A DNA stretch of 39,935 nt, taken from the IMG/VR virus record IMGVR_UViG_2711768011_000006, one strand, 5' to 3'. The notes under the pieces were generated by a model that saw only the letters and a program-made list of their open reading frames with translations, was not told the origin of the DNA and made no database searches. The stretch is from a virus (lineage: Duplodnaviria; Heunggongvirae; Uroviricota; Caudoviricetes). Below are positions 1,824-39,935 of the stretch, piece after piece (within the stretch, counting starts at the first letter, position 1; each line of letters opens with the position of its first letter). The translations under genes were made by a program, and so were the position numbers.

Positions 1824-3911
1824 ATGTTTGCTTCAGTTAAAGAACTGGTTGGATTACCGGGGATGCCGGGAACGGAGCAAGGCGTTCGCTATTCAATCAG
1901 GAAGTATGCAACCAGCGAAACCAGCAGACGCCGCAAGAAAGGCGCTAAAGGTTTTGAATACAGCATTGACTGTTTACCTGAAGTGACACAGCAGGCATTA
2001 CGCGAACGTTATGCCCTGCAACTGATGACGCAAAAAGCCGATGAATCACCGGCTCCGGTGGTGACAAAGGCCAGACGCTCGTCTGCCGTGGTTGATGCGG
2101 TGGAGGCATATCGCGGATCACCACAACTGATGGTCGAACGCCTCAATGCCCTGACTGAAAACCAGCGCCAGGTGGCAGACGCACGCATTGCGATCGTCAG
2201 TGAGGTGCTGAAATTCACGCAACAACCCGGTTTCAGCTGCGCTAAAGCTATCCGGTTCCTCGTTAACAGCCTGGCACGATCACAACTGGACGAGCGCATT
2301 GTGGCAATGGTTGAGACGGCGAACGCCAAAAAGGGAAACAGCCGCGCGTTGAGTGAAATCACGCTGAAACGCTGGATTGCGGCCTTTAACAAGGCACAGA
2401 ACGCCGCTGAACGCCTGCTTTTACTGGCACCGGGTAAACGCCAGGAAATAAAAGCCGAAGATATTAACTGGCTGCCCGAATTTCTGGCGCAGTATCGCCA
2501 GTCAAACGGCCGACCAATGACCGAGGCTTACGAGGATTTTGTTGCTGAATGGCAGCACCGGCACGCTGATGAGCCTTATATGCTCGATATCATGCCCTCT
2601 TATGACACCATTCGCCGCGCAATGAAGAAACTGCCGGAAGTGGTGAAACAAAAAGGCCGGGTAACTGGCAGTGAATACCGTCAGCTTGAGGGATTCACGC
2701 GCCGCGACTGGTCCAGAATGCCGGTGAATTATGTCTGGATTGGTGACGGTCACGGCATGAAGCTGAAATGCGCGCACCCGGTTCACGGGCGGCCATTCGC
2801 ACCGGAAGTGACCTTTGTTATCGACGGTGGCACGCGCTTTGTGGTGGGCTGGAGCCTTGACCTGGCTGAAAATGTTTTCGCCGTAGCCGGTGCCATACAG
2901 CACGGTATTCGCCATCATGGCAAACCGTTTCTGTATTACTCGGATAATGGCTCCGGGGAAACCGCCGACGTCCTGGATAAGGAGATTGTGGGGATACTGC
3001 CACGACTGGGGATTAATCACCCGACAGGGATTGCCGGTAATCCGCAGGGACGGGGCATTATCGAACGGCTTAACCGCACATTACCGATGCGCATAGCCCG
3101 TAAATACCGCACCTATTTCGGGAAAGGAGCAGATCGCGAGACGTTACGTAAAACCAACCGCGATTTACGCTCGGCATTCAGTGCCCTGCAACAGGGCAAA
3201 CGGCTGAACGCCCGGCAGCAGTCAGCGATGCGTGATTTACCGTCCTGGTCTGAACTGATTGATGCCATTCGTGACGGTGTTGAGTGGTACAACAACCGGC
3301 CGCACGATGAATTACCCATGAAGCCGAACGGTAAACATTACAGCCCGGCGGAGTTCAGAAAAAAACGCCTGGCGGAAGAGGACACGGAAATTGAATGGCT
3401 GTCCGATGTTGAACTGCGGGATATGTTCCGGCCGATGGTGGAGCGCCCTGTAAGACGCTGTGAAATACGCTGGCTGAATAATATTTACTACGCGCCCGAG
3501 CTGCGTGACGAGCATGGCCGTAAGGTACTTATCAGCTATGACATTCATGATGCCGAACGAATTACCGTGCGCCGCCCGGATGGCAGCGTGATTTGCGAGG
3601 CGGTATGGGACGGCAATAAACGCGAAGCCTTCCCTGTCAGCGCGGAATACTACAAACAGCAGCAGCGCCTTAAAGGCATGCGTAAACGCGCAGAGGAAAA
3701 AATCCGTGATGCCGAGGATGAGGTTGTCAACGTGCTGGAGCACAAGCCGCAGGAGCCCTGGCTGGAAAACATATACCGCCCTGTGGGTAATACGGTGACC
3801 GTTCAGCAACCGGTCGCTGACGATGAACCTGATGAAGAATACGAGCGTAATTTCCAGCGGGGATTGCAACTGCTCGAAGCGAAATTAAAAGAAAGTGATC
3901 CGCTGGCCTGA
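1824..3911 (+). CDS. A: Mu-type DDE transposase A
   Basis: 695 aa directly after ner. Central catalytic core resembles MuA (WIGDGHG...YYSDNGSGE...GNPQGRGIIERLNRT). Size and position match MuA. Confidence 0.95.
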   Translation: MFASVKELVGLPGMPGTEQGVRYSIRKYATSETSRRRKKGAKGFEYSIDCLPEVTQQALRERYALQLMTQKADESPAPVVTKARRSSAVVDAVEAYRGSPQLMVERLNALTENQRQVADARIAIVSEVLKFTQQPGFSCAKAIRFLVNSLARSQLDERIVAMVETANAKKGNSRALSEITLKRWIAAFNKAQNAAERLLLLAPGKRQEIKAEDINWLPEFLAQYRQSNGRPMTEAYEDFVAEWQHRHADEPYMLDIMPSYDTIRRAMKKLPEVVKQKGRVTGSEYRQLEGFTRRDWSRMPVNYVWIGDGHGMKLKCAHPVHGRPFAPEVTFVIDGGTRFVVGWSLDLAENVFAVAGAIQHGIRHHGKPFLYYSDNGSGETADVLDKEIVGILPRLGINHPTGIAGNPQGRGIIERLNRTLPMRIARKYRTYFGKGADRETLRKTNRDLRSAFSALQQGKRLNARQQSAMRDLPSWSELIDAIRDGVEWYNNRPHDELPMKPNGKHYSPAEFRKKRLAEEDTEIEWLSDVELRDMFRPMVERPVRRCEIRWLNNIYYAPELRDEHGRKVLISYDIHDAERITVRRPDGSVICEAVWDGNKREAFPVSAEYYKQQQRLKGMRKRAEEKIRDAEDEVVNVLEHKPQEPWLENIYRPVGNTVTVQQPVADDEPDEEYERNFQRGLQLLEAKLKESDPLA

Positions 3912-3984
3912 AATAAAAAAATAACCCGAGGGGTGACTCAGGTTATTTGAGGTTTCAGTCTCGGAGAATGCTGTCTCAAGCGAG

Positions 3985-4926
3985 GTGAATAATATGACCG
4001 ATATTAACGATGTAATCAAGACCATTGATGAACTTATTGATGGCGGCGTACTGACGCAGTATGCCATCGCCAGAGAGGCGGGAATTTCCGACGGCACATT
4101 ATCGGCTTTCCGTAAGGGAAAATATAAAGGCGATAACGCTGCTGTGGCTGCTTCCCTGCGCTCCTGGTATGAGAACTGGAATAAACAAAGCGCACTGCCG
4201 GAACCGCCGCAGTTTGTGGAAACTCAGACAGTCCAGGAGCTGCGCGCACTGTTTCAGGCGGTTCGCCTGATGGGCTGTATTAACGTTATTGTGGGCGTAC
4301 CGGGTGTGGGTAAAACGGCCACTGCCCGTAATTACTGCCAGGAGCAACCAAACACCTGGATGATCACCCTGTCACCCGCGCACTCCAGCGTCACGGAGTG
4401 TCTGCTGGAGCTGGCCGATGCGCTGGGGATTGATTACACCCGCGCGAACAAAGGGGCATTATCCCGCGCCATCCGCCGTCGCCTGATGGGAACGCGTGGA
4501 CTGGTGATTGTGGATGAGGCGGATCATCTTGGTATTGACGGTCTGGAGCAACTCCGGGCAATTCAGGACGCCACGGGGATCGGGATGGTGCTTATTGGTA
4601 ACCCGCGCGGATTGTTTAAAGGTGGACGCCGCGCCTTTGATGATTTATCGCGCCTGTTCAGCCGTCTTGCCCGTACAAAACAACTTCGCAAGGCCAAAAA
4701 GGCGGATGTGCTGGCCATTGCCATGGCGTGGGGGATCAGTGGTGAGGCCGAGCTGGCCGTCATGCAGGCTATCGCTGAAAAGCCGGGAGCGTTACGCGTT
4801 CTGACACATACGCTTAACCAGGCGTGGCTCACCGCCAGCGGTGAAGGCGCGGCGCTGACAGAAAAACATATTAATGCGGCCTTTAAAGAGGTTTATACCA
4901 ACCCTGAATTACTCTCACAGGTGTGA
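3985..4926 (+). CDS. B: Mu B-type transposition ATPase / target DNA activator (GTG start at 3985; alternative ATG at 3994)
   Basis: Walker A motif GVPGVGKT. N-terminal HTH-like region. Strong co-linearity with Mu B (PEPPQFVETQTV, VIVDEADHLG, KPGALRVL). Confidence 0.95.
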   Translation: MNNMTDINDVIKTIDELIDGGVLTQYAIAREAGISDGTLSAFRKGKYKGDNAAVAASLRSWYENWNKQSALPEPPQFVETQTVQELRALFQAVRLMGCINVIVGVPGVGKTATARNYCQEQPNTWMITLSPAHSSVTECLLELADALGIDYTRANKGALSRAIRRRLMGTRGLVIVDEADHLGIDGLEQLRAIQDATGIGMVLIGNPRGLFKGGRRAFDDLSRLFSRLARTKQLRKAKKADVLAIAMAWGISGEAELAVMQAIAEKPGALRVLTHTLNQAWLTASGEGAALTEKHINAAFKEVYTNPELLSQV

Positions 4927-25077: not shown

Positions 25078-27135
25078 ATGGCAAAAAACCTGAAAGCCTC
25101 CCTGATTGTCGATTTACTCGGCAATATTTCTGCCAAATCCCGCCAGTGGTCACAGGAGCTGGGGGCATTCTCCCGTTCCGGCAGGACGGGGCTGGGTGGT
25201 CTTGGAAATGCAGCACGTCGTGCCGGTCAGGAGACAGAACTTGTCGGCTCCCGTATGCAGCGAACGCTTGCCGGTGTTCGTGGCAGTATCCGCACGGTGA
25301 CGTCAGATTTTGACCGCCTTCAGGGCAGCATTACCGGCACCATCGGGCGGATAAGCAACCTTTACGGGATGCTGGCGGGAGGGGCTGCGGTCTACGGGTT
25401 TAATAAAGCCTTTATCCGCCCGGCCGCAGAGATGGAGAACTATATTCTGCGTCTCAACGCCATTAATCATGGCGATACGGCAAAAACGGAAGCAGTGAAA
25501 GCCTGGGCGGTACAGAACGCCAAAGACACCACCTGGGGGCTGGCGGGGGTTATGCAGGAATACGCCTCCAGTCGCGGGTTCGGTATGAGTGACAGGGAAG
25601 CCCGTCGCTTTATTACCATGCTTCAGGATCAGGGCGGCTATCACGGCTGGTCACTGTCAGATGCACAGGGTGCGTCCCTGCAACTCAAACAGATGTTTGC
25701 CCGCCAGAGTATCCAGGCAGCGGACGCCAATATTCTGACCGGATACGGGATTAACGTTTACCAGTTGCTGGCCGATAAGCTGGGTGTAAACCAGAAGATC
25801 ATCCGTGAGAAAGGCGAGAAAGGAAAACTGGGACCGGACAGCATTCGCCTGTTATTTCAGGTGATGGCCGAACAGGCAAAAGGTGCCCAGAAAAACGCCA
25901 TGAATTCCTGGACGGGAATGACGTCCATGATGGGCGATGTCTGGGACGGATTTGCCCGCGAGGTGATGGCAAAGGGACCGTTTGACAGCCTGAAAAAGAG
26001 CCTGAAAGGCTTTCTGGATTATGCTGATGCGGCACAGAAAAGCGGCTTACAGGATAAGCTGGCCACACAGACGGCCTCAGCCCTGAATCAGGGATTTGAG
26101 TATGCCAGAGACGCTGCGACCGGCTTTTACCGGGTCATTCAGAAAGTCAGGGAAACGCTTCAGGCACTGCGCGACGCCGGTTATGGCGATGCGCTGGATC
26201 GCATTGGTCAGGGTGCGCAGACCGCCGCAAAGTACCTGATGTATATGTATCTCGCCTCCCGTGCGCTGAAGGTGCTCAGGTTTGCGGGGACGGGGGCATT
26301 ACGTCTCGGCGCAACCCCCTTACGCTATGGCATGGCGATGACCTCCGTGCTGACGTCGCCCTTCCGCAAACCGCAGACCACTGTACCGGGAACGCAGCCC
26401 GGACGCGCTGGCCGGTTCCTGAATTTCCTTACCGGGGTAAATCCGGCTGCCGTTCAGCCCGTGCTGGTCACCAATTGGCCTGCGGGTGGCCTGGCCTCAG
26501 GTGGCGGGGATGTGGTGGTCAGCGGTGACGGCAAAACCGTGCGCGGCCGTAAAAAACGCGGCCCCGGACGTGGACGGGGTGTCACGACCGTCGTGACTGC
26601 CGGTGAGCAACTGGCGGAGAGTGCCGGTAAACAGGGCTTCTTCGGTCGTATGATGAGCCGTGCCGGTGGTCTGCTAACGGCGGCCGGAAACCGCATGGGG
26701 CTGGGGCGTTTTGCCGGGCTGTTCCGTGGTGCCGGTCGGCTGGGTGGTGGTGCCCTGTGGGCCGGTGCCATGGCGGCTCCTGTACTGCTGGACAGCAGCG
26801 CCAGTGCAGCCGATAAAGCCGGTGCCGTGGGTTCCCTTGCCGGAAGTATCGCCGGTGGCGCGCTGGGGGCGGCTGCCGGTCCGGTCGGGGTTGCCATTGG
26901 TTCCACGGTGGGCAGCTATCTCGGTGATTATCTGGGGGGCTGGCTGACGCAGGCCTGGCAGAAACTGCGTGGCGGCAGTGACGAAAACGGCGGACAGGCC
27001 ACCGCGAAAACCGCCGCACGGGTGGAGCTTGTTGCCCCTGAAGGCTGGCGGGCGCGCAGTATTGATGTGGATGATACCGCACAGCATGGCCTGGATGTGA
27101 ACGTCTGGAACGGAGGGAACTATGGCCTCTACTGA
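25078..27135 (+). CDS. Tail tape measure protein
   Basis: 685 aa, helical N-terminal two-thirds and Gly/Ala-rich C-terminal region. Located between the chaperone and baseplate genes. Confidence 0.85.
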   Translation: MAKNLKASLIVDLLGNISAKSRQWSQELGAFSRSGRTGLGGLGNAARRAGQETELVGSRMQRTLAGVRGSIRTVTSDFDRLQGSITGTIGRISNLYGMLAGGAAVYGFNKAFIRPAAEMENYILRLNAINHGDTAKTEAVKAWAVQNAKDTTWGLAGVMQEYASSRGFGMSDREARRFITMLQDQGGYHGWSLSDAQGASLQLKQMFARQSIQAADANILTGYGINVYQLLADKLGVNQKIIREKGEKGKLGPDSIRLLFQVMAEQAKGAQKNAMNSWTGMTSMMGDVWDGFAREVMAKGPFDSLKKSLKGFLDYADAAQKSGLQDKLATQTASALNQGFEYARDAATGFYRVIQKVRETLQALRDAGYGDALDRIGQGAQTAAKYLMYMYLASRALKVLRFAGTGALRLGATPLRYGMAMTSVLTSPFRKPQTTVPGTQPGRAGRFLNFLTGVNPAAVQPVLVTNWPAGGLASGGGDVVVSGDGKTVRGRKKRGPGRGRGVTTVVTAGEQLAESAGKQGFFGRMMSRAGGLLTAAGNRMGLGRFAGLFRGAGRLGGGALWAGAMAAPVLLDSSASAADKAGAVGSLAGSIAGGALGAAAGPVGVAIGSTVGSYLGDYLGGWLTQAWQKLRGGSDENGGQATAKTAARVELVAPEGWRARSIDVDDTAQHGLDVNVWNGGNYGLY

Positions 27136-28480
27136 CACGCCGGGGCGTGGCTCCTTTCGTGGCGTACCGTTCCTGGTTTATCAGGAGCAGCGGGAACGGG
27201 GCGGACGTAACATTGTGCGCCGTGAATACCCACTGCGTGAAAGCGGCGGTGCGGATGATCTGGGGCCAAAACTCCCGGAGTTCACATTCACGGTTCTGGT
27301 GACCGGAGACGATCTTCAGACACAGCGAAGCCGCCTGCGTGATGCGCTGCGTGCACCCGGTGCCGGTGAACTGATGCACCCGGATTACGGCACGTTAAAC
27401 GTGCTGATAAACAGCTTTGAAAGCCGTTATAACGCCAGCGAGCAGGGAACGGTTGAGTTCACGATCAACGTGATCCCCGCCAGTGACGATACCGCCCCTG
27501 CGGTGGCAGAAGATACGGCAGCTGCGCTGGAGCAGAAAAGCGGCTCAGCAATGAATCAGCTGTTTAACACGCTTTCAGACGGCTGGACGGTGATTTCAGA
27601 CGGTCTGCATGATGTACAGGCCATGACCGACACCATCAGCGATAAGATTGATGCACTGGAGAATGCCGTTTCGGGGATGGGGATTGTGCAGGATATCAGT
27701 GCCTTTACGGCCAGTTTTACTGCCCTGAAAGGCAATGCCGCCGCCCTGATTAATGCGCCCCGTCGCATGGCTGAATCGCTGGCCGGAATGTTTGCCGTGC
27801 TGACCGGGCTGCCCGGCGATCCTTCCCTGTCTCTGACCGGAAAAGCCGGAACGCCGTCCGGCAGCCTGACCACAAACCGTGACAGCATGGCAGAGCAGGC
27901 CATGCCGCAGCTGTACCGCACACTTTCCTCCCTGCGTTACACCCTCAGCGAACAGGATGATCCACAGCGCCTGATTGGCCTGACGCCTGCGGCACAGAAA
28001 AATATCCGTCTGCTGCGGAGCGTGATGCAGAGTGCAACCCTGGTGTCGCAGGCACAGACGCTCGGAAAACTGCTGGATCAGGTCATCCGGCAGAATACGA
28101 CGCACGTTCAGGATACTGACCGTTCGGGCGGACTGGCCTGGCTGGAAAGTTCTGCTGATGTGCAGCGTATCAACCGGGATTTGAGCGATGCCATGGAACA
28201 ACAGGTGCTGGATCTGTCCGCACAGGGCTATACCGGGACTGCCCTTGCATTACGTGATGCAGGGCTTGCGCTGACAGAAGATTTAACCACACGGAGCGTG
28301 CATCTTCCCGGTGCTTTTCAGGTCATGGTTCGCACCACCGAACCGGCACTGGTCACGCTGTACCGTGCCACCGGCAACAGCAGTCGCTGGCAGTATTTTG
28401 TCCGCAGAAACAATATCCCCGATCCGGTTTTTGTTCCGGGTGGCCGCAGCGTGGAGGTGATCAGTGAGCAGCAGGATTGA
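27122..28480 (+). CDS. DNA circularization protein (Mu P / gp43-like)
   Basis: 452 aa in the Mu P position after the tape measure. Confidence 0.75.
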   Translation: MASTDTPGRGSFRGVPFLVYQEQRERGGRNIVRREYPLRESGGADDLGPKLPEFTFTVLVTGDDLQTQRSRLRDALRAPGAGELMHPDYGTLNVLINSFESRYNASEQGTVEFTINVIPASDDTAPAVAEDTAAALEQKSGSAMNQLFNTLSDGWTVISDGLHDVQAMTDTISDKIDALENAVSGMGIVQDISAFTASFTALKGNAAALINAPRRMAESLAGMFAVLTGLPGDPSLSLTGKAGTPSGSLTTNRDSMAEQAMPQLYRTLSSLRYTLSEQDDPQRLIGLTPAAQKNIRLLRSVMQSATLVSQAQTLGKLLDQVIRQNTTHVQDTDRSGGLAWLESSADVQRINRDLSDAMEQQVLDLSAQGYTGTALALRDAGLALTEDLTTRSVHLPGAFQVMVRTTEPALVTLYRATGNSSRWQYFVRRNNIPDPVFVPGGRSVEVISEQQD

Positions 28481-29588
28481 ACTGTATATCGGTGGCAGTA
28501 TTTTTTCCGGCTGGCTGACGGTCAGCGTCCGTCGCTCGCTGGAGCATCTGGCCGGGTCGTTTGAACTGGGGCTGATGCTGCCCGGTGAGCGCATCCCCTC
28601 AGCCCTGCGAACCGGTCAGTCCCTGACGCTCAGAATTAACGGGCAGACGGTCATCAGTGGCTGGCTGGATCAGGTCAGTCAGCGGATCAGTGCAACCCGT
28701 CATCAGATCAGCATCAGCGGTCGGGATAAAACCGGCGACCTGGTGGACTGTGCCGCCATCCATCCCGGCAGCCAGTGGCGCAACCGGACGCTGGCACAGA
28801 TTGCCGCAGATTTATGTGCGCCCTTCGGGATAGCCGTGCGCTGGCAGGTTAACGACGACACGGCTGCACGCCCCTTCAGCTCTTTTACGCTGGAAAACTC
28901 AGAAACCGTGGCGGATGCGCTGACCCGTGCTGCCCGGCATCGCGGGGTGCTGGTGACCAGTAATGCTGACGGCGATCTGGTGTTCACCCAGGCAGGAAGC
29001 CAGCAGACGGACAGACTGGTGCTGGGAGATAACCTGCTTGATGCCGATTACAACACGGACTGGCGAGGACGATACAGCGAATACCGTGTCCGGGGACACG
29101 GGCGCGGTGGTGGCAAACGGGGAGACAGCGAATCCGCCGCCCGTCTGGCAGCACCTGTGGGCGTCATCAGTGATGAGCAGATCGGCCGCTACCGGTCGAA
29201 AATCATCCTCGCCGATCAACAGACAGACACCACCGGTGCACGGCAGCGTGCCCTGCGTGAAATGCGCCGTGCGATTGCCCGTTCAGAACGGTTTTCTGCC
29301 ACCGTGCGTGGCTGGTTCCGGGATGATGGCCGGTTATGGGATGTCAATCTGCTGACCGGTGTTTCAGCCCTGCGTTTCGGTATAGAACAGACTGAACTGC
29401 TGGTCTGTCAGGTGGAGTTTTTACTTGATGAACATAACGGGGAAGTCACCCGGCTGGTACTGGCACCGCGTGACGGCTTTATCGTTCCGGCAGAGCCGGA
29501 CAGTAAGGGCCGGGGTGGTTCCGGTGACGATGTTGATGCCTTTATTCGCCAGCAGATGAAAAAACAGGGGATCAGCTTTGATGAATGA
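28464..29588 (+). CDS. Baseplate hub protein (Mu Q / gp44-like)
   Basis: 374 aa in the Mu Q position. Confidence 0.75.
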   Translation: MSSRIELYIGGSIFSGWLTVSVRRSLEHLAGSFELGLMLPGERIPSALRTGQSLTLRINGQTVISGWLDQVSQRISATRHQISISGRDKTGDLVDCAAIHPGSQWRNRTLAQIAADLCAPFGIAVRWQVNDDTAARPFSSFTLENSETVADALTRAARHRGVLVTSNADGDLVFTQAGSQQTDRLVLGDNLLDADYNTDWRGRYSEYRVRGHGRGGGKRGDSESAARLAAPVGVISDEQIGRYRSKIILADQQTDTTGARQRALREMRRAIARSERFSATVRGWFRDDGRLWDVNLLTGVSALRFGIEQTELLVCQVEFLLDEHNGEVTRLVLAPRDGFIVPAEPDSKGRGGSGDDVDAFIRQQMKKQGISFDE

Positions 29589-30192
29589 TGAAGTGTTCAG
29601 CCGCCTGATTGCCCCGGTAACGCGCGGTATTCGCCTGTTGTTTGGCCGGGGCGTTCTGACCGGCACACATGACGAACTGAAAATGCAGAATGTGCAGCTC
29701 ACCGGCATGGACGGCGAAACCTTTGATGATGTGGAGCGTCCCCAGCAGTACGGGCAGATCAGCGTTCCCCTGCCGGGTGCGGAAACCTTTTTTGCCTGTC
29801 TGGGCGGACAGCGGGATCAGACTGTGGTGCTTGTGGTGGAAGACCGGCGCAGCCGCCCGACCGGACTCACAGCCGGAGATACGGGGGTGTATCACCATGA
29901 GGGGCACCGGATACGGTTAACAAAGGATGGTCGCATTATTGTGACATGCAAAATGCTGGAGATTTACGCCGATGAGGGGATGCGGGTGGATACGCCGGAG
30001 GCCACCTTTACGGGCAATGTGACGGTGGATAAAAACCTGCATGTTAAGGGTAATTTCGTGCTTGATGGTACAGGTAAATCAGACGGGCTGTTCACGATGT
30101 CTGATGCCGTTATTGCCGGGATCACCTATTCCGGCCATGTGCATCAGGATAACGGCAAAGGCAGTAAGACAGGAGCGCCGGAGAATGGCTGA
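29578..30192 (+). CDS. Baseplate central spike/assembly protein (Mu V / gp45-like)
   Basis: 204 aa in the Mu gp45 position. Confidence 0.75.
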   Translation: MMNDEVFSRLIAPVTRGIRLLFGRGVLTGTHDELKMQNVQLTGMDGETFDDVERPQQYGQISVPLPGAETFFACLGGQRDQTVVLVVEDRRSRPTGLTAGDTGVYHHEGHRIRLTKDGRIIVTCKMLEIYADEGMRVDTPEATFTGNVTVDKNLHVKGNFVLDGTGKSDGLFTMSDAVIAGITYSGHVHQDNGKGSKTGAPENG

Positions 30193-30622
30193 TATTGCAA
30201 TTGTATGGGATCAGGGGTGCGGTTCGCTGCAACTGAACGGTGCCGACTTGCTGACGGATGACAGTCTGCTGACGGCCGTTCTGATTTCGCTGTTTACTGA
30301 CCGCCGGGCGCTGGCATCGGATGAAATCCCTGACGGTACGCGCGACCGCCGGGGATGGTGGGGAGACAGTTTTCGCCCGCGCCCCATTGGCTCCCGTCTG
30401 TGGCTTCTCAGCCGGGAAAAAACGCTGGCCTCGGTGATAAGCCGTGCCCGTGCTTACGCGGATGAGGCGCTGGGCTGGCTCAGTCAGGATGGCGTGGCGT
30501 CATCCGTGGTCTGTCATGCAGAACGTGTGGGACACGCGCGGCTGGCGCTTTCGGTGCGCATAACCCTGCCTGATGGTTCAGTGAGGCCCATGATTTTTTA
30601 TGCTGATCTTAAGGGGGAGTAA
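30185..30622 (+). CDS. Baseplate protein (Mu W / gp46-like); ATG at 30185 (ORF frame is open from 30041)
   Basis: ATG at 30185 overlaps the previous stop (ATGGCTGA). 145 aa in the Mu gp46 position. Confidence 0.7.
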   Translation: MADIAIVWDQGCGSLQLNGADLLTDDSLLTAVLISLFTDRRALASDEIPDGTRDRRGWWGDSFRPRPIGSRLWLLSREKTLASVISRARAYADEALGWLSQDGVASSVVCHAERVGHARLALSVRITLPDGSVRPMIFYADLKGE

Positions 30623-31704
30623 TGCCTTATCAGCCTTTACCGCTGGCACAGTTAATCACGCAGACACAGCAGGATATCAGCCAGCGCCTGCCCGGCTCGC
30701 AGCCGGGTGTGAATGAAACCACCCTGAATGCCATTGCTTACGCTCAGGCAGGGTTATCTGCTCAGGAGCATGAGCATCTGGCCTGGATTGCGCGTCAGAT
30801 CATCCCGACCGAAGCCGATGAAGCCGAACTGCTGAAACACTGTGCATTCTGGGGCGTCATGCGTAAGCCTGCCTCTCGGGGGGACGGGCCGGTTCAGCTG
30901 ATGCTGACCACGGATGCGGGGATCAAGGAAGGTGTGCTTCTCCAGCGAAGTGATGGCGTGGTTTACCGTATCACCACCTCCCTGACCGGTAAGGCCGGTA
31001 CGCTGAATGTCAGTGTGGAAGCCGAAAGTGCCGGTCGTGCGGGGAATGCCCCGGCAGGGACAAAACTGACATTTATCACACCGCAGGCGGGGATCAACCA
31101 GACGGCCACGGTGACCGGAACGGGGATCACCGGTGGTGCGGATGTGGAAACCGTGCCGGAGCTGCTTTCCCGTCTGGTTTTCCGGGTGCAGAATCCACCG
31201 TCCGGCGGCACGCAGTATGATTTTGAACGCTGGGCGCGTGAAGTGCCGGGCGTGACGCGGGCATGGTGCCGCCCGGAATGGCCGCAGGCGGGCAGCGTGG
31301 GGGTAACGTTTGTTCAGGATAATAACCCGGATATTTTCCCCGGTGACGGTGATGTTCAGCGGGTGGCGGATTATATCCGCAGTCATGATGATCCGGCGAC
31401 CGGCCAGCCTGTCGGACAGCCTCTGGGGCCGACGGTGACCGTGTTTAAACTGACCAATAAGCCGGTGCCCTTCAGCATCAGGATCATCCCGAAAACACCG
31501 GAGAATCAGGCGGCCGTAAAACAGGCGCTGACCGACCTGTTGTATAACGAATCCCGGCCCGGCGGTCTGGTTCTGCCGTCGTCTTTCTGGCGGGCGGTGG
31601 CAGGGGTGAAAAATCTGGAGGATTTTGAAGTGCGCAGTCCGCTGACGTCAGTTCAGGCGGGAGACAGTGAGCTGCTGACGGTAGGAGAAATCACATGGCT
31701 GTAA
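30622..31704 (+). CDS. Baseplate J-like protein (Mu gp47-like)
   Basis: 360 aa; size and position typical of the baseplate J family. Confidence 0.8.
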   Translation: MPYQPLPLAQLITQTQQDISQRLPGSQPGVNETTLNAIAYAQAGLSAQEHEHLAWIARQIIPTEADEAELLKHCAFWGVMRKPASRGDGPVQLMLTTDAGIKEGVLLQRSDGVVYRITTSLTGKAGTLNVSVEAESAGRAGNAPAGTKLTFITPQAGINQTATVTGTGITGGADVETVPELLSRLVFRVQNPPSGGTQYDFERWAREVPGVTRAWCRPEWPQAGSVGVTFVQDNNPDIFPGDGDVQRVADYIRSHDDPATGQPVGQPLGPTVTVFKLTNKPVPFSIRIIPKTPENQAAVKQALTDLLYNESRPGGLVLPSSFWRAVAGVKNLEDFEVRSPLTSVQAGDSELLTVGEITWL

Positions 31705-32255
31705 CCCTGACCCCGCATCAGCGCGCCCTGTTGCAGTTACTGCCTGACGGGCTGGCATGGGACAAGCGTCCGTCATCCGTACTGGCATCATTATGTCTGG
31801 GCCTCAGTCATTCGACAGCGCGTGTATCCTGGACGGGTAAACAGCTGCTTGCCGAGCGTTTCCCTGACACGTCGCGCCTGCTGCTGGAAGACTGGGAGCG
31901 TTATCTCGGGCTTCCCGAGTGTGATATGGCCGGAGCCACCCTCACGGAGCGACAGCGTTATGCCGGAAATAAATACCGGATGAAGCCCTCGCTGAACCGT
32001 GAATTTTATATCCGGTTTGCGGCGGAGTTTGGTTATCAGATTGACATTCAGCCCTCACCGGATTCGCAGTGGGTCAGTATTGTCACGATTAACAGTGAAA
32101 CCGGCTACCGGAATATGAATGTGCTGGATGATATTCTCACGCCGCTGCGTATTTATGAAGGCGGTGCGCTGGAATGTATTCTGAACCGTTATAAGCCTGC
32201 ATGGCAGACGTTTATTTACGTTTATGCAAACAGCCATGAAGAGGAGACTATTTAA
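31695..32255 (+). CDS. Tail protein (Mu gp48-like)
   Basis: 186 aa directly upstream of the tail fiber gene. Confidence 0.7.
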
Positions 32256-33136
32256 TGTTTCATGTTGATAATAATTCCGGCGTGGCGAATATGCCTGCGC
32301 TGGCACCGGCGCAGAGTAATACCACCACCTGGTTTACCGAAGGTGACGGACAAAAAGGTATCAGCTGGATTGGTCAGGACTGGCTGAATATTCTCCAGGC
32401 CGAACTGCTGAATATTCTGGCTGAAGCCAGTATTCAGCCGGATAAGGCGCAGTTAAACCAGCTTACGCTGTCCATTAAAGCCATTATCGCTGCGAATGCC
32501 TTTTCCCGGAAAAATAACCTGAAAGAAATTGCTGATGCCGGTGCGGAGGCCCAGCGTCTGGCCCGTGGTTATCTTGGTCTGGGGACGCTTGCCACAAAAA
32601 ACAGTCTTGGTCCCGCTGACGTTAATGCCCTGGCGAAGGATCAGAATCTCGCCGACCTGGAGAATAAGGGAACCGCCCGTAATAATCTGGATGTTTACAG
32701 CAAAAGCGAAGGTGATAACCGTTACCTGCGCAGGGAGCAGAACGGCGCAGACATTCCGGATAAAGGGGCTTTTATCGATAACGTCGGTTTACGGGAAACG
32801 GTAAACAGGGCGGCGAATGCCCTGCCATCGGACGGCACCGCCGTTGCCGCGAACAGGCTGGCAAATGCCCACACAATTAATGGTGTTCCCTTTGACGGGA
32901 CGCAGGATATCACTATCTCATCAGGAACAGTAACCGCCATAAGACTGGGGTCGGTGACCGCACATATGCCCGGAACATGGGAAAGCTGGGATCTGAATCT
33001 GGGGGGCGGCAATGTTCTTACCGGAATTAAAGTACAGGATGTCGGTAAGAATACGGCAGATAACGTCGGCGGCGTGTATTACCGGCCGTTGCAGTATCTG
33101 TTAAATGGAGCATGGGTGACGGCTGCAAGTATATAA
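32255..33136 (+). CDS. Tail fiber protein (constant N-terminal part to about 32785 plus currently expressed variable C-terminal part)
   Basis: 293 aa. The 3' third lies inside the invertible segment; the gene crosses the left crossover site and the 68-bp inverted repeat. Confidence 0.8.
32772..32797. promoter_or_regulatory. gix-like recombination site (left): TTATCGATAACG-TC-GGTTTACGGGAA
   Basis: 26-bp site with 2-bp core. Right half-site is identical to the reverse complement of the left half of the right-hand site. Overall resembles the Gin gix site (TTCCTGTAAACC GA GGTTTTGGATAA) as recalled from memory. Confidence 0.55.
32786..32853 (+). repeat. Inverted repeat, left copy (68 bp), internal boundary of the invertible segment
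   Basis: Reverse complement of 34033-34100 with one mismatch. Encodes the shared residues [23 protein letters not shown] in both fiber variants. Confidence 0.85.
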
Positions 33137-33144
33137 TGATATTC

Positions 33145-33168
33145 AGAAGGCCTTCCGGCCTTCTTTAT
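33145..33168. terminator. Hairpin between the convergent tail fiber and tail fiber assembly genes (AGAAGGCC-TTCC-GGCCTTCT followed by TTTATT)
   Basis: 8-bp perfect stem with 4-nt loop, flanked by a T-run on the plus strand. Confidence 0.55.
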
Positions 33169-33689
33169 TACTGTGGCTGCTCAGGCCATTTAATGGCGTT
33201 AAATTCAGCTTCTGTTTTAATGGCGGGTAGTTCCATTTTCTTCACCTGACTGATGTATGCCATCCATTGGGTAAGTGCTGCTCTGTCTTCATCGCTGATG
33301 GTGCCCAGTTGTAGCTCCGTTCTCCAGTCATTAATTTTTTCATATGCCTGATTAAGATATGACTGGCGCATTGCTTCCAGTTTTCTTGCGTAGTTAACCG
33401 GAATACGGGAGATTATGCCATTATCAAACTTCCAGTTTCCTGAAATATCCGTGCCTTCAGGGAGTTCATCGACCTCAACCACAGAAAACCCCGCAGGATA
33501 CAGCGCCGAGGCGTCCTGTGATATTGAGCAGATAACGCCGCTGTCAGGTGTTATGCAAAGTTTATATTTTTTGGTGAATAATGGCAGGGATTCGTAGAAA
33601 TCCTTACCATCTTCACTCTGGAAATACTGAACATTATTACCATATGGCATATTTTCAGGATAATAACGGGTTATATTTTTTAGTTCCAT
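33168..33689 (-). CDS. Tail fiber assembly protein (chaperone for the alternative fiber C-terminus; Mu U'-like position)
   Basis: 173 aa inside the invertible segment on the opposite strand, immediately downstream of the alternative fiber C-terminal segment. Confidence 0.75.
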   Translation of the reverse strand: MELKNITRYYPENMPYGNNVQYFQSEDGKDFYESLPLFTKKYKLCITPDSGVICSISQDASALYPAGFSVVEVDELPEGTDISGNWKFDNGIISRIPVNYARKLEAMRQSYLNQAYEKINDWRTELQLGTISDEDRAALTQWMAYISQVKKMELPAIKTEAEFNAIKWPEQPQ

Positions 33690-33740
33690 AAAATCCTCCT
33701 GGAAATAAATCTGTTTTAAAATATATTATTTACTGACTAT

Positions 33741-34100
33741 TTATAACTGAGATACCGTAATCCATGTACCTCCGACTAATTTTTGCAGGGGTCTGAATGC
33801 TATAAAATCGTTTGAAGCATCAACTTTACTGTCAATCTGCAGGCCTGCCATAACATTACCGTACGCAGAGTAATATGCCCCACCGTACATTACCTGCCTG
33901 TTCTCTGCTCCCAGCCTGATATCCTGGATATATCGGGAATCCGCATCCTGCTGTGTTATACCAGAAGTGATGTTTATGTCCTGCGTCCCGTCAAAGGGAA
34001 CCCCATTAATATTTCTTGGGGTGGCGAGTCTATTCGCGGCAACGGCGGTGCCGTCCGATGGCAGAGCATTCGCCGCCCTGTTTACCGTTTCCCGTAAACC
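33741..34100 (-). other. Alternative tail fiber C-terminal coding segment (no start codon of its own; would be fused to the constant fiber part after inversion)
   Basis: Minus-strand frame continuous with the inverted repeat reads [47 protein letters not shown]...WITVSQL then stop. Its first residues are identical to the current fiber at the repeat and then diverge. Confidence 0.65.
34033..34100 (-). repeat. Inverted repeat, right copy (68 bp)
   Basis: Reverse complement of 32786-32853 with one mismatch. Confidence 0.85.
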
Positions 34101-34114
34101 GAGGTTTTCAGGAA
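34089..34114. promoter_or_regulatory. gix-like recombination site (right): TTCCCGTAAACC-GA-GGTTTTCAGGAA
   Basis: Near-palindromic 26-bp site. Differs from the recalled Mu gixL at 1 position in the left half. Confidence 0.6.
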
Positions 34115-34179: not shown

Positions 34180-34752
34180 ATGCTGATTGGGTATATCAGG
34201 GTGTCAACAAATGACCAGAATACGGCGCTACAAAGAAATGCGCTGGAATGTGCAGGATGTGAGCTGTTTTTCGAAGACAGAATAAGCGGTAAGACAAGGG
34301 AGCGTCCCGGACTTAAACGCGCATTAAAGCGACTCCGGCCAGGGGATACCCTGCTGGTCTGGAAACTGGATCGCCTTGGACGCAGTATGCAGCACCTTGT
34401 CCTTTTAACAGAAGAACTCCGGCAACGCGGCGTTAACTTCCGCAGCATTACGGACAATATTGATACATCCACTCCCATGGGACGTTTCTTTTTCCATATA
34501 ATGGGCGCGCTGGCGGAAATGGAGCGGGAACTCATTATTGAACGTACACGCGCGGGTCTTGCTGCTGCCCGTGCTCAGGGGCGTCATGGCGGCAGACCTC
34601 AGAAACTGACAGAGAAAGAGCGGGAGCAAATCGCCCGTTTGCTGGCTAATGGCGAGTCCCGTAAACAAATCGCACTGATATTTGATATTGGCCTTTCCAC
34701 CCTTTATCGTTATTTTCCTGCCTCACCAGCTCCGTCACCAAAAGTACCGTGA
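34180..34752 (+). CDS. gin: Site-specific DNA invertase, serine recombinase (Gin/Pin/Hin/Cin family)
   Basis: 190 aa. N-terminal catalytic region (MLIGYIRVSTNDQNTALQ...WKLDRLGRSMQHLV) and C-terminal HTH (GESRKQIALIFDIGLSTLYRYF). Sits adjacent to the invertible segment as in Mu. Confidence 0.95.
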   Translation: MLIGYIRVSTNDQNTALQRNALECAGCELFFEDRISGKTRERPGLKRALKRLRPGDTLLVWKLDRLGRSMQHLVLLTEELRQRGVNFRSITDNIDTSTPMGRFFFHIMGALAEMERELIIERTRAGLAAARAQGRHGGRPQKLTEKEREQIARLLANGESRKQIALIFDIGLSTLYRYFPASPAPSPKVP

Positions 34753-34837: not shown

Positions 34838-36892
34838 ATGTCAGACTCCAAGTGGAAAATGCTCTCCGCCATGCCCGGAGAGTTTTCAGTCAAGGTTGCC
34901 GGTGGCACGGTGGCATTTATTGAAAGCCCTTTCCGCCCTTCGGGTAATAAAGGGGGGATCACCTTCGCAGACTGCGTGATCCGCTTCAGCACGAAAGAGC
35001 CATTATGGGTAATGCCGGTATCCGGTAATCCCAGTGCAGAAATCACCAGTTCAGGCGTGACTGGCATCATTCCAATCACATCTGACGTGGCCGGAACGCT
35101 CACGCCCTCCGACTGGAATGCACCGGATAACGCCGGGCCTTCCGGTAGCACGAATGGCAGCAGTTCAGAGCCGGAATATTACTTTGTTGTCATTCTCGCG
35201 GGTCAGTCAAATGGCATGGCCTACGGCGAGGGGCTGCCGTTACCGGATTCGTTTGACCGCCCGGACCCACGCATTAAGCAACTGGCACGCCGCAGTACGG
35301 TAACGCCCAACGGTACGTCGTGTACATACAACGACATCATTCCGGCAGACCACTGCCTGCATGATGTTCAGGATATGAGCGGGATAAACCACCCGAAAGC
35401 TGATCTGGCAAAAGGCCAGTACGGGACTGTCGGTCAGGGGTTGCATATTGCCAAAAAACTGCTTCCCTATATCCCACAGAATGCCGGGATACTTCTGGTG
35501 CCCTGTTGTCGTGGCGGGTCAGCATTCACCACTGGAGCCGACGGCTCATTCAGTGAGGCCAGCGGTGCTTCCGCTGATTCTTCACGCTGGGGGGCCGGTA
35601 AACCTCTGTATCAGGACCTGGTAAGCCGCACCAAAGTCGCGCTGGCGAAAAACCCGAAAAACAAACTTCTGGCTGTGGTCTGGATGCAGGGAGAGGCAGA
35701 CCTTGCCTCAGGAAGCCAGCAGCATAATAGTTTATTCACGGCCATGGTTCAGCAGTTCAGAACTGACCTGGCTCCGCTTGCTGCGCAGTGCGTGAGTGGA
35801 AATGCCACCACGGTGCCGTGGATTTGCGGTGATACCACGTATTACTGGAAAAACGCTGGCACCGATAAATATGAGGCAGTATACGGTGGCTACAAAGGCA
35901 AGGAAGCACAGAAAATTTTCTTTGTACCGTTCCTGACGGATGAGAATGGACAGAGCACGCCAACGAATGCTCCGGCGGAAGACCCGGATATTGTGGCTGT
36001 CGGGTATTACGGTGCAGCATCCCGAACCCAGGGCAGTTTTGTTTCGACACAGCGTGACAGCCATTTCAGCTCATGGGCACGCAGGGGCGTCATTTCAGAC
36101 CGTCTGGCCTCAGCTATTATGCTCCATGCAGGGCGCACGGCTGAACTGATGCGTGGGCAGACCGTGACACCACCGGATGAGAAGCCGTCACCTGATACAC
36201 CATCAAAACCGTCCACGCCACCCGCAGACACCACGACGATGAGTACGCTATTTGCTTACCGGGCATCTGAGTCTGAAGGACGGTTGACACCACAGGGTTG
36301 GGCTGCCGGAGGTGGCAAGGCTCAAATCGTGGATGATGCCGGAGCCAGCGGGGGTAAGGCAATGAAACTGACCAAGGAAACAGGAAGAGCCCCCTGGTAC
36401 CTTGAGCATGATGCTGGTAATGGTGCGGACCTGCTGGGTAAAGGTGGTCTTGTCAGTTGTCGTTTTAAACTCGATGGCGCGCTTACGGCTAATCAGTACG
36501 CACTGGCGCTGTACTGGCCGGTTTCTGCCCTGCCGCAAGGGGTTACTCTGGAAGGAAATGCCGGTCATAACCTGCTGGCATCGTTCTACGTACAGAGCGA
36601 TGCCACAGACCTTAACGTGATGTATCACAAAGGAAACACGGCGCAGAACACGAAGCTGGGGTCATTCGGCGCATTTAATAACGAATGGCATACGCTGGGC
36701 TTCCGTTTTGCCGGTAACAACAGTATTGAGGTGACGCCGGTCATTGATGGTAAGGACGGGACACCATTCATGCTGTCGCAGTCTCCGGTCGGCACGTTTA
36801 CGGCAGACAAGTTGCGCGTGACCGATATCACTAAAAATGCGACTTACCCGGTACTGATTGACAGTATCGTGGTGGAAGTGAATAACGCGTAA
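34838..36892 (+). CDS. Multidomain SGNH-hydrolase / sialate-O-acetylesterase-like protein with Pro/Thr-rich linker and C-terminal beta-sandwich-like domain
   Basis: 684 aa. The block YYFVVILAGQSNGMAYGEG matches the GQSN-type catalytic block of the SASA carbohydrate esterase family. A PDEKPSPDTPSKPSTPPADTTT linker follows. Not part of the canonical Mu gene set. Confidence 0.6.
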   Translation: MSDSKWKMLSAMPGEFSVKVAGGTVAFIESPFRPSGNKGGITFADCVIRFSTKEPLWVMPVSGNPSAEITSSGVTGIIPITSDVAGTLTPSDWNAPDNAGPSGSTNGSSSEPEYYFVVILAGQSNGMAYGEGLPLPDSFDRPDPRIKQLARRSTVTPNGTSCTYNDIIPADHCLHDVQDMSGINHPKADLAKGQYGTVGQGLHIAKKLLPYIPQNAGILLVPCCRGGSAFTTGADGSFSEASGASADSSRWGAGKPLYQDLVSRTKVALAKNPKNKLLAVVWMQGEADLASGSQQHNSLFTAMVQQFRTDLAPLAAQCVSGNATTVPWICGDTTYYWKNAGTDKYEAVYGGYKGKEAQKIFFVPFLTDENGQSTPTNAPAEDPDIVAVGYYGAASRTQGSFVSTQRDSHFSSWARRGVISDRLASAIMLHAGRTAELMRGQTVTPPDEKPSPDTPSKPSTPPADTTTMSTLFAYRASESEGRLTPQGWAAGGGKAQIVDDAGASGGKAMKLTKETGRAPWYLEHDAGNGADLLGKGGLVSCRFKLDGALTANQYALALYWPVSALPQGVTLEGNAGHNLLASFYVQSDATDLNVMYHKGNTAQNTKLGSFGAFNNEWHTLGFRFAGNNSIEVTPVIDGKDGTPFMLSQSPVGTFTADKLRVTDITKNATYPVLIDSIVVEVNNA

Positions 36893-36950: not shown

Positions 36951-37036
36951 TTATATCCAAAGCAAAAAATGCAGTGCACCTTTTTACCTAACAGATATTA
37001 CCGGTGTCAACACCATGTCAATAATTGGGAGGGATA

Positions 37037-37219
37037 ATGACATTTTTACAGCTTATTTTATTGTATTTCTGCACGGCAGTATGTGCGTTATATCTGGTGA
37101 GTGGTGGTTATAAGGCCATCAGAAATTATGTTCGCCGCAAAATTGAGGACGCAGCAGCTGAAAAACTCAGTAAAACAGCGCAGGTAACTCCGCTCCCAAA
37201 AGACCCGACCCAGCCCTGA
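37037..37219 (+). CDS. Small membrane protein (single N-terminal transmembrane helix)
   Basis: ATG at 37037 preceded by GGGAGGG; 60 aa. Hydrophobic N-terminus (FLQLILLYFCTAVCALYLVSGG) followed by a charged tail. Confidence 0.4.
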   Translation: MTFLQLILLYFCTAVCALYLVSGGYKAIRNYVRRKIEDAAAEKLSKTAQVTPLPKDPTQP

Positions 37220-37254: not shown

Positions 37255-37509
37255 ATGCCAGAAATTAAAGGCACCGTCACTGAAGACCTGGTAAAACAGG
37301 CACTGTATTCCGGTGAAGTAAATAAGTTGCTGAAAGCGCAGGTCCGCAAGGATTTTGAGGCACAAATCGACACTTACGTTGATGAAGTGCTGGCAAAACT
37401 TATTGGGCCAGCAGTTGCGGCCAGTGATGCTGATAATGAGCCGAAAACCGACGCGCAGCCAGAGCAACCAGACCCGGCTCAGCCCGGAACTGACAGTACC
37501 ATGATGTAA
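37255..37509 (+). CDS. Small acidic hypothetical protein
   Basis: ATG at 37255 with strong ribosome-binding site (AAGGAGG) 7 nt upstream; 84 aa, acidic Pro-rich C-terminus. Confidence 0.5.
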   Translation: MPEIKGTVTEDLVKQALYSGEVNKLLKAQVRKDFEAQIDTYVDEVLAKLIGPAVAASDADNEPKTDAQPEQPDPAQPGTDSTMM

Positions 37510-37970: not shown

Positions 37971-38162
37971 AGCAGCCTCTTACGCTGGCAATTAACCAAT
38001 TGACTTCTATAAATTAGTTGATTTGTTTGCTTTGCGGTATTCAAATGTACAATCATTCAGCACTTATGCGTTACAGCACCGTTTAAAATTAGTGATCAAA
38101 CTCATAAATTTTCGCTAATGACATTTCGTGTTATTTGTTGTATCAATTAAATAAATCAAATC

Positions 38163-38179
38163 GATCGTTTTTGTCGATC
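38163..38179. promoter_or_regulatory. Clustered GATC (Dam) sites upstream of com-mom (38163-38166 and 38176-38179) within the direct repeat TCGATCG-N6-TCGATCG
   Basis: Two GATC sites 13 bp apart about 50 bp upstream of the com start. In Mu, mom transcription is controlled by Dam methylation of upstream GATC sites. Confidence 0.4.
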
Positions 38180-38226
38180 GATTGAGTGATAAAGATATCA
38201 ACAACAAAGCAGGAGGTTATGCGGCC

Positions 38227-38427
38227 ATGTATCGAAACATACGGTGCCGACATTGTAACAAGCTACTGGCACGAGCCAGCTTCAGTTATCTGGAAGTTAA
38301 ATGTCCGCGCTGTAAAACCCTCAATCAAATCACATCTCAGAGCGCCACAGAGCACCCCACATACACAAGGAAATCCTGTCGTGGGGAACAGAAAGCAAGT
38401 TACATCCCGTATCATCAGCACGCCTGA
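38227..38427 (+). CDS. com: Com-like zinc-finger translational activator of mom
   Basis: ATG at 38227 with AGGAGG 10 nt upstream. Translation [35 protein letters not shown] resembles Mu Com (two CxxC pairs). Overlaps the 5' end of the mom frame. Confidence 0.8.
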
Positions 38428-39118
38428 ACTTATTCACTATAACGACAATATCGTCGGTTATGGCTCCCGTGAGTTACGGGTTGAGACAATAAGTTGCTGG
38501 CTGGCCCGGCTGGTCGTCGTCAATAAACATTACAGCCATCGTTTCGTAAATAATTCCTACCTTCATCTGGGCATATTTTCAGAACGGGAGCTGGTTGGCG
38601 TAATGCAATGGGGTTATGCCCTTAATCCAAACAATGGTGCACGCGTCGTAACTGGCACGCAGAACCGCGAATATATGGAGCTTAACCGGTTATGGCTGCA
38701 TGACTGTATGCCGAGAAACTCCGAATCAAGGGCAATCAGTTACGCGCTCAAACTAATCAGACAACTTTATCCGCAGGTGCAGTGGGTTCAGTCGTTTGCA
38801 GATGAGCGTTGTGGCTGTCTTGGTGTCGTGTACCAGGCAAGCAATTTTGATTATGTAGGCAGTCATGAAACAACATTCTATGAACTTGATGGCGAGTGGT
38901 ATCACGAGATTTGCAAGAATGCAATCAAACGAGGAGGACAGCGAGGTGAACATCTGCGGGCTAATATCGACAGAGCCAGTGTTCATAAATTCCGTCAGTT
39001 TCGTTACATCCGGTTTCTGGACAAGAGAGCCAGAAAACGCCTTAACACAAAGCTATTCAAAGTCCAGCCTTACCCAAAACCACAAACAGTTAAAACTGGT
39101 TTGAAAGAGAGTGAATGA
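38381..39118 (+). CDS. mom: Mom-like DNA modification protein; start uncertain (GTG at 38381 chosen; frame is open from 38186)
   Basis: Long ORF overlapping the com 3' end in another frame, as in Mu. Sequence ([18 protein letters not shown]...FADERCG...[10 protein letters not shown]) resembles Mu Mom as recalled. No in-frame ATG exists between com and the conserved region. Confidence 0.8.
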
Positions 39119-39204: not shown

Positions 39205-39453
39205 NNNNNNNNNNNNNNNNNNNNNNNNNNNNNNNNNNNNNNNNNNNNNNNNNNNNNNNNNNNNNNNNNNNNNNNNNNNNNNNNNNNNNNNNNNNNNNNN
39301 NNNNNNNNNNNNNNNNNNNNNNNNNNNNNNNNNNNNNNNNNNNNNNNNNNNNNNNNNNNNNNNNNNNNNNNNNNNNNNNNNNNNNNNNNNNNNNNNNNNN
39401 NNNNNNNNNNNNNNNNNNNNNNNNNNNNNNNNNNNNNNNNNNNNNNNNNNNNN
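39205..39453. other. Assembly gap (249 N)
   Basis: Continuous run of N. ORFs translated across it (39111-39470, 39194-39748) are artefacts. Confidence 1.
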
Positions 39454-39745
39454 CCAGTGGCCGGCGCTGACGTACTATGCAGATGATGGCTGGGCTGAGG
39501 CGGACAATAACATCGCTGAAAATGCGTTGCGGATGGTCAGTCTGGGCCGCAAAAACTACCTGTTCTTCGGTTCGGATCATGGAGGAGAGCGGGGAGCGCT
39601 GCTGTACAGCCTGATCGGGACGTGCAAACTGAACGGAGTGGAGCCAGAAAGCTACCTCCGCTATGTCCTTGACGTCATAGCCGACTGGCCGATAAACCGG
39701 GTCGGCGAACTGCTCCCCTGGCGCGTAGCACTGCCGACTGAATAA
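39454..39745 (+). CDS. tnpC: IS66-family transposase TnpC, C-terminal fragment (5' part lost in or before the gap)
   Basis: Frame open from the gap edge: QWPALTYYADDGWAEADNNIAENALRMVSLGRKNYLFFGSDHGGERGALLYSLIGTCKLNGVEP..., the conserved C-terminal block of IS66 transposases. Confidence 0.8.
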
Positions 39746-39782
39746 CACATTCCCGTCAATACGGTTCTTGCTGCACGCTTAC
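39454..39782 (+). mobile_element. IS66-family element, right portion, ending with terminal repeat ...CGCTTAC at 39782
   Basis: tnpC 3' end followed by about 37 bp ending in GCACGCTTAC, the reverse complement of the IS66-type terminus GTAAGCG. Confidence 0.6.
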
Positions 39783-39935
39783 GGTAAACACCCCGGAAGT
39801 GGTGATGCACACTGTTGCTGATGTGATGACAGGAAACGATGGTGAATACTGTTTCCATGCGCGGACTGGAAAATATGGTGTGTATCTGAAACCGGGCTGG
39901 CACAACGAGTACAACGTTGGCGACATTGCTGTATA

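Follow-up and report, generated by a model that had tools for sequence, protein, structure and literature searches.

Invertible tail fiber segments are a classic form of host-range bet-hedging among temperate phages, and tail fiber assembly (Tfa) chaperones are a practical bottleneck when fibers are swapped to retarget phages, pyocins, or delivery particles. In the closest described system, the Gin/gix-controlled G segment of phage Mu (also found in D108 and SfMu), a segment of 3059 bp exchanges fiber ends of about 334 amino acids in a fiber of 504 amino acids, and each end has its own chaperone (S with U, S' with U'). Here, we analyze a 39,935-nucleotide stretch of viral DNA (Caudoviricetes; IMG/VR virus record IMGVR_UViG_2711768011_000006), which at its full length we call the window. 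It contains a complete Mu-type transposable prophage of Escherichia coli belonging to an Sp18-like family, and we hold it very likely that this prophage carries a working Gin/gix-type inversion switch in its tail fiber gene, most likely alternating host range. Judged from its sequence and those of its relatives, the switch appears unusual in being half the size of its Mu counterpart, in having one chaperone gene for two fiber tips, and in that the state without a chaperone gene is the commoner one.

The switch lies between a gp48 baseplate gene and an invertase gene, where Mu has its G segment (as placed by Pfam matches to gp47/gp48), in a transposable Mu-type phage that likewise has com/mom. 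Its invertase is 74% identical to Mu Gin, its two recombination sites match Mu gixL/gixR at 22/26 and 21/26 positions by hand count and have the same TC/GA core, and the constant N-terminal part of its fiber (Sc), the tips, and Tfa are homologous to Mu Sc, S, and U. Unlike the Mu segment, the one in the window measures only 1315 bp between the core dinucleotides (43-44% of the G segment), its alternative ends are 116 and 119 amino acids long, and the present fiber has 293 amino acids. The pairing of each fiber end with a Tfa of its own is absent here: whereas Mu has U plus U', the window has one tfa, with a hairpin where U would end. Also unlike Mu, cargo genes (for a DUF6645/sialate O-acetylesterase (SASA) protein, DUF1378, and DUF826) stand between the invertase gene and com/mom. 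The features of the switch and the landmarks of the prophage are collected in the table.

Table. Coordinates of the inversion switch and of prophage landmarks in the window.
Feature	Position	Strand	Comment
Repressor-like helix-turn-helix gene	860-1405	-	Early region
Mu transposase A	1824-3911		Early region
MuB	3985-4926		Early region
Baseplate gp43-gp48 set	27122-32255		
Tail fiber gene S, present state	32255-33136	+	293 amino acids; Sc fused to tip A1
Sc, constant N-terminal part	32255-32785	+	177 codons outside the segment
Left gix-like site	32772-32797		TTATCGATAACG-TC-GGTTTACGGGAA; core TC 32784-32785; natural inversion breakpoint maps here
Invertible segment	32786-34100		1315 bp between core dinucleotides; 1343 bp including sites
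Tip A1 (Sv), expressed now	32786-33136	+	116 amino acids; no co-oriented tfa
GC-rich hairpin	33145-33164		Exactly between convergent stop codons
tfa, tail fiber assembly (chaperone)	33168-33689	-	173 amino acids; co-oriented with tip B, 51-nt gap
Tip B1 (Sv')	34100-33741	-	119 amino acids plus stop; no start codon; joins Sc only after inversion
Right gix-like site	34089-34114		TTCCCGTAAACC-GA-GGTTTTCAGGAA; core GA 34101-34102
Gin-type serine DNA invertase	34180-34752	+	190 amino acids
Com/Mom	38182-39118		Right end

Both recombination sites are 26 bp long and stand in inverted orientation, each with imperfect 12-bp half-sites around a 2-bp core, and the two cores are identical when read in that inverted orientation. 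The core pattern AAMSNNGGTTTWC occurs at these two sites only in the whole window (3 strand-hits against 0.07 expected). Searching the window with Mu gixL and up to 3 mismatches returned no match, because the sites differ from gixL at 4-5 positions by hand count. An inverted repeat of 68 bp with one mismatch is present; a repeat-finding tool extends its arms to 86 nt at 93% (32777-32862 / 34024-34109), and a second block of 50 nt at 84% (32876-32925 / 33961-34010) brings the residues encoded in common to about 47. As in Mu, the repeat runs on into the coding motif GLxETVNRA, more exactly GL(R/Q)ETVNRA.

Natural genomes show that the segment inverts, with exchange at the core dinucleotides. In E. 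coli strains FORC_029 and NCCP 13983, the prophage occupies one and the same gene for a fimbrial usher (annotated FimD/PapC, next to elfD), and the two loci of 26,546 bp are identical except for an exact reverse complement of the interval corresponding to window positions 32784-34102, which spans from the TC core to the GA core. Among complete E. coli genomes, 18 (20 at a coverage of at least 80%) have the orientation of the window at 98.7-100% identity, and 4 have the form flipped in silico, at 99.7-99.9% over the full 2546 bp. Strains DLI.5a and TOE17 hold two copies each, one per state. Counted over complete genomes of the window type, the present orientation (state A) outnumbers the inverted one (state B) by 20 to 6, and among the IMG/VR loci still carrying the switch by 15 to 5. 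Mu lysogens, upon induction, are reported to give both particle types in equal ratios (PMC4406740). The roughly 3:1 excess of state A in the assemblies may stem from unequal flipping rates, selection, or sampling.

The positions of Sc, the tips, Tfa, the invertase, and the esterase that follows it were mapped in 70 related loci, some of which are referred to below by L numbers. Many short-read IMG/VR contigs (L014, L020, L023, L028, L033-L035, L040, and L042) end inside the repeat or within about 130 nt after the left site, as if a mixture of orientations in the cultures had broken the assembly graph. The many contigs broken at the repeat do indicate that assemblers struggle there, as would be expected if the repeats were a mere shared coding motif and the two orientations artifacts of assembly. 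The chance that no real inversion takes place is nevertheless practically nil, since both states occur in complete, independently assembled genomes and the FORC_029 and NCCP 13983 loci differ by nothing other than an exact flip at the cores; this explanation is already refuted.

The invertase itself is a small serine recombinase, with matches to Pfam Resolvase (PF00239, E = 2e-51) and HTH_7 (PF02796, E = 5e-15) and to PHROG 125 'DNA invertase', and with Ser9 in the motif YIRVSTNDQ. The cis-acting recombinational enhancer of Mu, with its two Fis sites, presumably lies in the 5' part of its invertase gene. The degenerate Fis consensus is matched in full once, by GTGCAGGATGTGAGC at nucleotides 71-85 of the invertase gene, and this match is shared by the window, Mu, and the Sp18 type. 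A second Fis candidate matches at only 6/7 positions, at a spacing of 54 nt, and is doubtful; a Fis-dependent enhancer was thus not confirmed, which is a point against our reading of the switch.

The fiber gene directly follows the gp48 homolog and matches PHROG 1833 'tail fiber protein' over its full length (E = 7e-141), and residues 1-191 match Mu S in PDB entries 5YVQ_A and 8JU3_A (E ~1e-46). When the segment is flipped in silico, Sc is in frame with tip B1, yielding a fiber of 296 amino acids that is followed, after the 51-nt spacer with a strong ribosome-binding site, by tfa. Sc is conserved at 95-100% in the closest E. coli and IMG/VR family loci, whatever tip follows, and at about 70% in L047, L052, and L053. 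Tips A and B are homologous over their whole length, with about 30% identity in the distal 65 amino acids and a common skeleton of IRLG, GNVxTG, YYRPxQ, and NGxWxT. Class A tips have the motif VQDxGxxxADNxGGVYYRP, with A1 the allele of the window and A2 that of the Sp18 type. The distal 69 amino acids of tip A1 are 44-55% identical to tips of SfMu S', P1-like S, P2-like H, and others. By these likenesses, both tips are small distal domains of the kind seen in Mu S / P2 H and are homologous to each other, which makes it most likely that the switch alternates host range in the manner of the Mu G segment. In RefSeq, the genes are annotated, and the silent fiber end appears as a partial 'phage tail protein'.

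An initial annotation of the window had put forward gix-like sites bounding the segment, 68-bp inverted repeats, an exchange of the fiber C-terminus between two variants, and a length less than half that of the Mu G segment. These proposals are borne out by the two sites beside a Gin-type invertase, the repeat with its one mismatch, the reading frames checked by the in-silico flip, and a segment of 1315 bp against 3059 bp, and the inversion it predicted is seen as an exact flip between near-isogenic genomes and in the recurrence of both states.

From these elements, a simple scheme can be proposed. Recombination by the invertase between the 2-bp cores of the two inverted 26-bp sites would flip the 1315 bp that they enclose. 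In state A, the late tail operon would read from Sc into tip A1, giving the 293-amino acid fiber, and the transcript would then meet the hairpin. In state B, it would read from Sc into tip B1 and then into the single tfa, giving the 296-amino acid fiber together with its chaperone.

The product of tfa is a typical Tfa protein, matching Pfam PF02413 (Caudo_TAP; E = 5e-19, 69 bits against a cut-off of 22.1), PHROG 136 (E = 5e-56), and Mu U in PDB entry 5YVQ_B (E = 4e-16). A tblastn search with it against the whole window found no second Tfa, and the small genes farther downstream belong to DUF1378 and DUF826 and do not encode one. The same arrangement holds across the family: in each of the 35 informative loci, of which 27 are invertible and 8 locked (the latter described below), there is one tfa, which is always co-oriented with a tip of class B (B1, B2, or B3) and never with tip A. 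The hairpin between the convergent genes has a folding energy of -15 to -16 kcal/mol (z about -3) and is probably a terminator, although the terminator scan of the window as a whole did not rise above chance. In the Sp18-type allele, this position is taken by a hairpin of another sequence, whose T-tail is on the strand of tfa. Since that tail faces the other way, the conserved feature is a hairpin between converging genes, not specifically a terminator for the orphan tip.

These results qualify what the initial annotation had said of the chaperone. Its claim that only the alternative variant has a co-oriented tfa is upheld in the window and throughout the family, and no other chaperone gene turned up in the prophage by tblastn. 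Its description of the current variant as followed by a terminator hairpin and no chaperone stands in part: a stable hairpin is there, but a terminator after the orphan tip is not a conserved feature, and 'no chaperone' is right as a statement of gene arrangement but is no evidence that the fiber works without Tfa.

Within the family, one derived lineage has become locked. A unique 130-nt insert has taken the place of tip B and almost the whole invertase gene, and the lineage is fixed as Sc-tip A followed by a convergent, intact tfa. Its members (L003, at 3936-4240, L017-19, L025, L036, L038, and L041; strains M1, M3, M18, and CI5) share the same boundaries and this insert. The deletion boundary lies about 21 nt upstream of the tfa start codon, and the ratio of nonsynonymous to synonymous divergence (dN/dS) of tfa is 0.10-0.23 in these loci. 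The insert, however, differs by about 4%, against a synonymous divergence (dS) of about 0.4 in tfa; because this flank is far less diverged than the synonymous sites of tfa, recombination can explain the conservation of the gene, and the selection signal is not decisive. A 40-codon open reading frame in the insert overlaps the start of tfa. At the junction, there arises a weak promoter-like sequence facing tfa, TGGACA-17-CATATT, which is at chance level.

How the fibers of state A fold is the less certain part of our reading. In one reading, the switch would toggle between two kinds of fiber in addition to two tips: state B would be a Mu-type tip made with its Tfa, which in Mu remains on the tip and assists in host binding, and state A a homologous tip that would work without a dedicated chaperone. 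That tip A folds with no phage-encoded Tfa at all is, in our estimate, quite possible but short of probable, and about as likely as the shared chaperone considered below. Two observations weigh against a Tfa-independent tip A. One is the locked lineage, which has neither tip B nor invertase and yet keeps an intact tfa. The other comes from A-like tips outside the family, which in 7/7 loci examined (SfMu S', a P1-like phage, fiAA91-ss H, Cronobacter CR3, Actinobacillus pPE4, Escherichia TH18, and a Citrobacter braakii prophage) are directly followed by a co-oriented Tfa or Tfa-sized gene, this being an unannotated gene of 194 amino acids in Escherichia TH18. The orphan status of tip A is therefore exceptional for this domain family.

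Both observations would be accommodated if a single Tfa folded both tips and were made from the minus strand even in state A, an explanation we regard as possible but somewhat doubtful. In described Tfa proteins, a variable N-terminal domain binds the fiber tip and conserved C-terminal helices drive trimerization, and Mu Tfa stays on the mature fiber (PMC9608196). In this family, the N-terminal 95 residues, the fiber-binding half, are almost invariant across the three very different partners B1, B2, and B3, with the variation in the C-terminal helical part, and Tfa alleles do not track tip type (L037 vs L053). Moreover, the Tfa proteins of Mu and SfMu are 91% identical and follow a B3-like tip in Mu and an A-like tip in SfMu, which suggests that these chaperones tolerate both classes. 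A chaperone shared in this way would need an as yet unrecognized leftward promoter and a central hairpin that acts as a two-way terminator. We found no sigma-70-like promoter facing tfa in state A above chance in the window, the Sp18-type locus, or the locked locus, where the sole match is the junction sequence mentioned above, and no consistent motif resembling the Mu C box (TTAT-N5-7-ATAA) in candidate late-promoter regions or near the segment. The allele type of the window (W-type) and the Sp18 type show no conservation in the short stretch that separates the right site from the invertase gene, which also speaks against a shared chaperone, and the conservation of tfa in the locked loci could, as noted, reflect recombination.

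Alternatively, Tfa might be supplied in trans, by co-resident prophages or by a minority of copies that flip during lytic replication. Carrier E. coli genomes have a median of 2 related places and up to 8, the two copies of DLI.5a and TOE17 are in opposite states, and Tfa appears promiscuous; we nevertheless think such supply unlikely, as a phage could hardly rely on the prophage content of its host and, in Mu, the segment rarely inverts during lytic growth (PMC4406740). Even less likely, in our view, is that the segment is a decaying G segment, in which an ancestor with two chaperones lost one tfa by deletion and state A now gives non-functional fibers, being an 'off' or defective state. The segment is indeed 43% of the Mu G segment, about 215 amino acids of the Mu Sv shaft are missing from its fiber, some relatives (e.g., L044) have two Tfa genes, and tips are frameshifted in a few loci. 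Against decay, the allele classes A1/B1 and A2/B2/B3 have the same layout despite their deep divergence, most loci keep every reading frame intact, state A is in the majority in both genome sets, a whole lineage is fixed in it, and the remaining prophage looks complete. Among A1 alleles, dN/dS is 0.08-0.13, and over the distal A tips it is 0.05-0.13, with dS ranging from 0.2 to saturation. These values indicate strong purifying selection on the orphan tip A, which argues against a decaying or 'off' state.

Some copies of the family are decaying as individuals. In L026 (5532-5640), the fiber stops 36 codons after the junction, and in L057 (1178-1533), tip B is frameshifted.

The rest of the prophage looks complete in gene content, with Mu portal, gpT major head, and tail sheath genes present in addition to the landmarks in the table. 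The Sp18-like family occurs in 237 of 5426 complete E. coli genomes (about 4%). Directly downstream of the invertase is a gene for a protein of 684 amino acids (34838-36892, plus strand) with a SASA (SGNH-type) domain at residues 117-312 and a C-terminal DUF6645. It is found, at 49-100% identity, in most family loci that reach far enough and is kept in the locked lineage. Its product could be a receptor-modifying enzyme or the product of a lysogenic-conversion gene within the host-specificity region. Small DUF1378 and DUF826 genes (37025-37219 and 37255-37509, plus strand) follow between the esterase gene and com/mom, where Mu has nothing; we take these families to be typical of lambdoid/Stx prophages, which would make them mosaic cargo. 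Just upstream of com/mom, a cluster of GATC sequences (38130-38190; …AAATCGATCG…GTCGATCGATTG…) resembles the GATC-rich region upstream of Mu mom. A run of 249 N is present at 39205-39453. When translated, the flanks of the prophage (1-700 and 39205-39935) look like what we take to be fragments of an IS66-family element, and if they are, this copy may have transposed into an insertion sequence.

With its length of about 1.3 kb and its tips of about 116 amino acids, the switch is a minimal natural module in which to ask whether a tip can fold without Tfa and how promiscuous a single Tfa can be. If state A is truly Tfa-free, it would be a natural and long-maintained exception to the rule that tips of the Mu/P2 type need a cognate Tfa. 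If neither question holds a surprise, what remains is a compact allele of the Mu G switch and nothing more.

The mechanism is the textbook Gin/gix one, and the Sp18-like family is common and already annotated. Its namesake, the Mu-like prophage Sp18 of E. coli O157:H7 Sakai, for which an 'invertible host-specificity region' was mentioned in 2009 (PMC2669165), has the same order of tip A, tfa, tip B, invertase, and esterase, and L002 and L027, which are loci of the Sp18 type, have an Sc of 98-99% identity. The Sp18 type differs from the window in the variable parts, with identities of 46% to tip A1, 35% to tip B1, 61% to Tfa, and 78% to the invertase. The single-chaperone layout appears to be undescribed, as full-text searches of the literature, in a limited library, found no description of it or of its sites.

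More distant systems follow the same plan. In the P/Pin segment of e14 (and Qin PinQ) and the C/Cin segment of P1/P7, a serine invertase likewise flips fiber C-termini beside a gp48-like (YmfQ) baseplate gene, and flipping at the population level has been shown for e14 (PMC4272514; PMC12529663). Unlike the segment described here, that of e14 measures 1797 bp, encodes two Tfa proteins, TfaP and TfaE, and is bounded by pix-type repeats (TTGGTTTGGGAGAAGG); segments of the P1/P7 type have a Tfa for each tip, and Mu, SfMu, and the P1-like phage each have two. The 'Mu' phase variation reported for enteropathogenic E. coli (EPEC) E2348/69 (PMC4272514) was considered as a possible instance of our element and rejected, being a 1.9-kb segment of the pix type.

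The only other segment we found with a single tfa between two convergent fiber ends is in a prophage of Citrobacter braakii ATCC 51113 (L008 5001-8871, equivalent to L049), which has an Sc of 74% identity and a Gin-type invertase of 65% identity; the related locus L044 has two Tfa genes. The C. braakii segment is nevertheless different, with a length of about 2 kb, longer fiber ends, and a Tfa of 229 amino acids, and in it the A-like tip adjoins tfa while a tip of a different type is the orphan.

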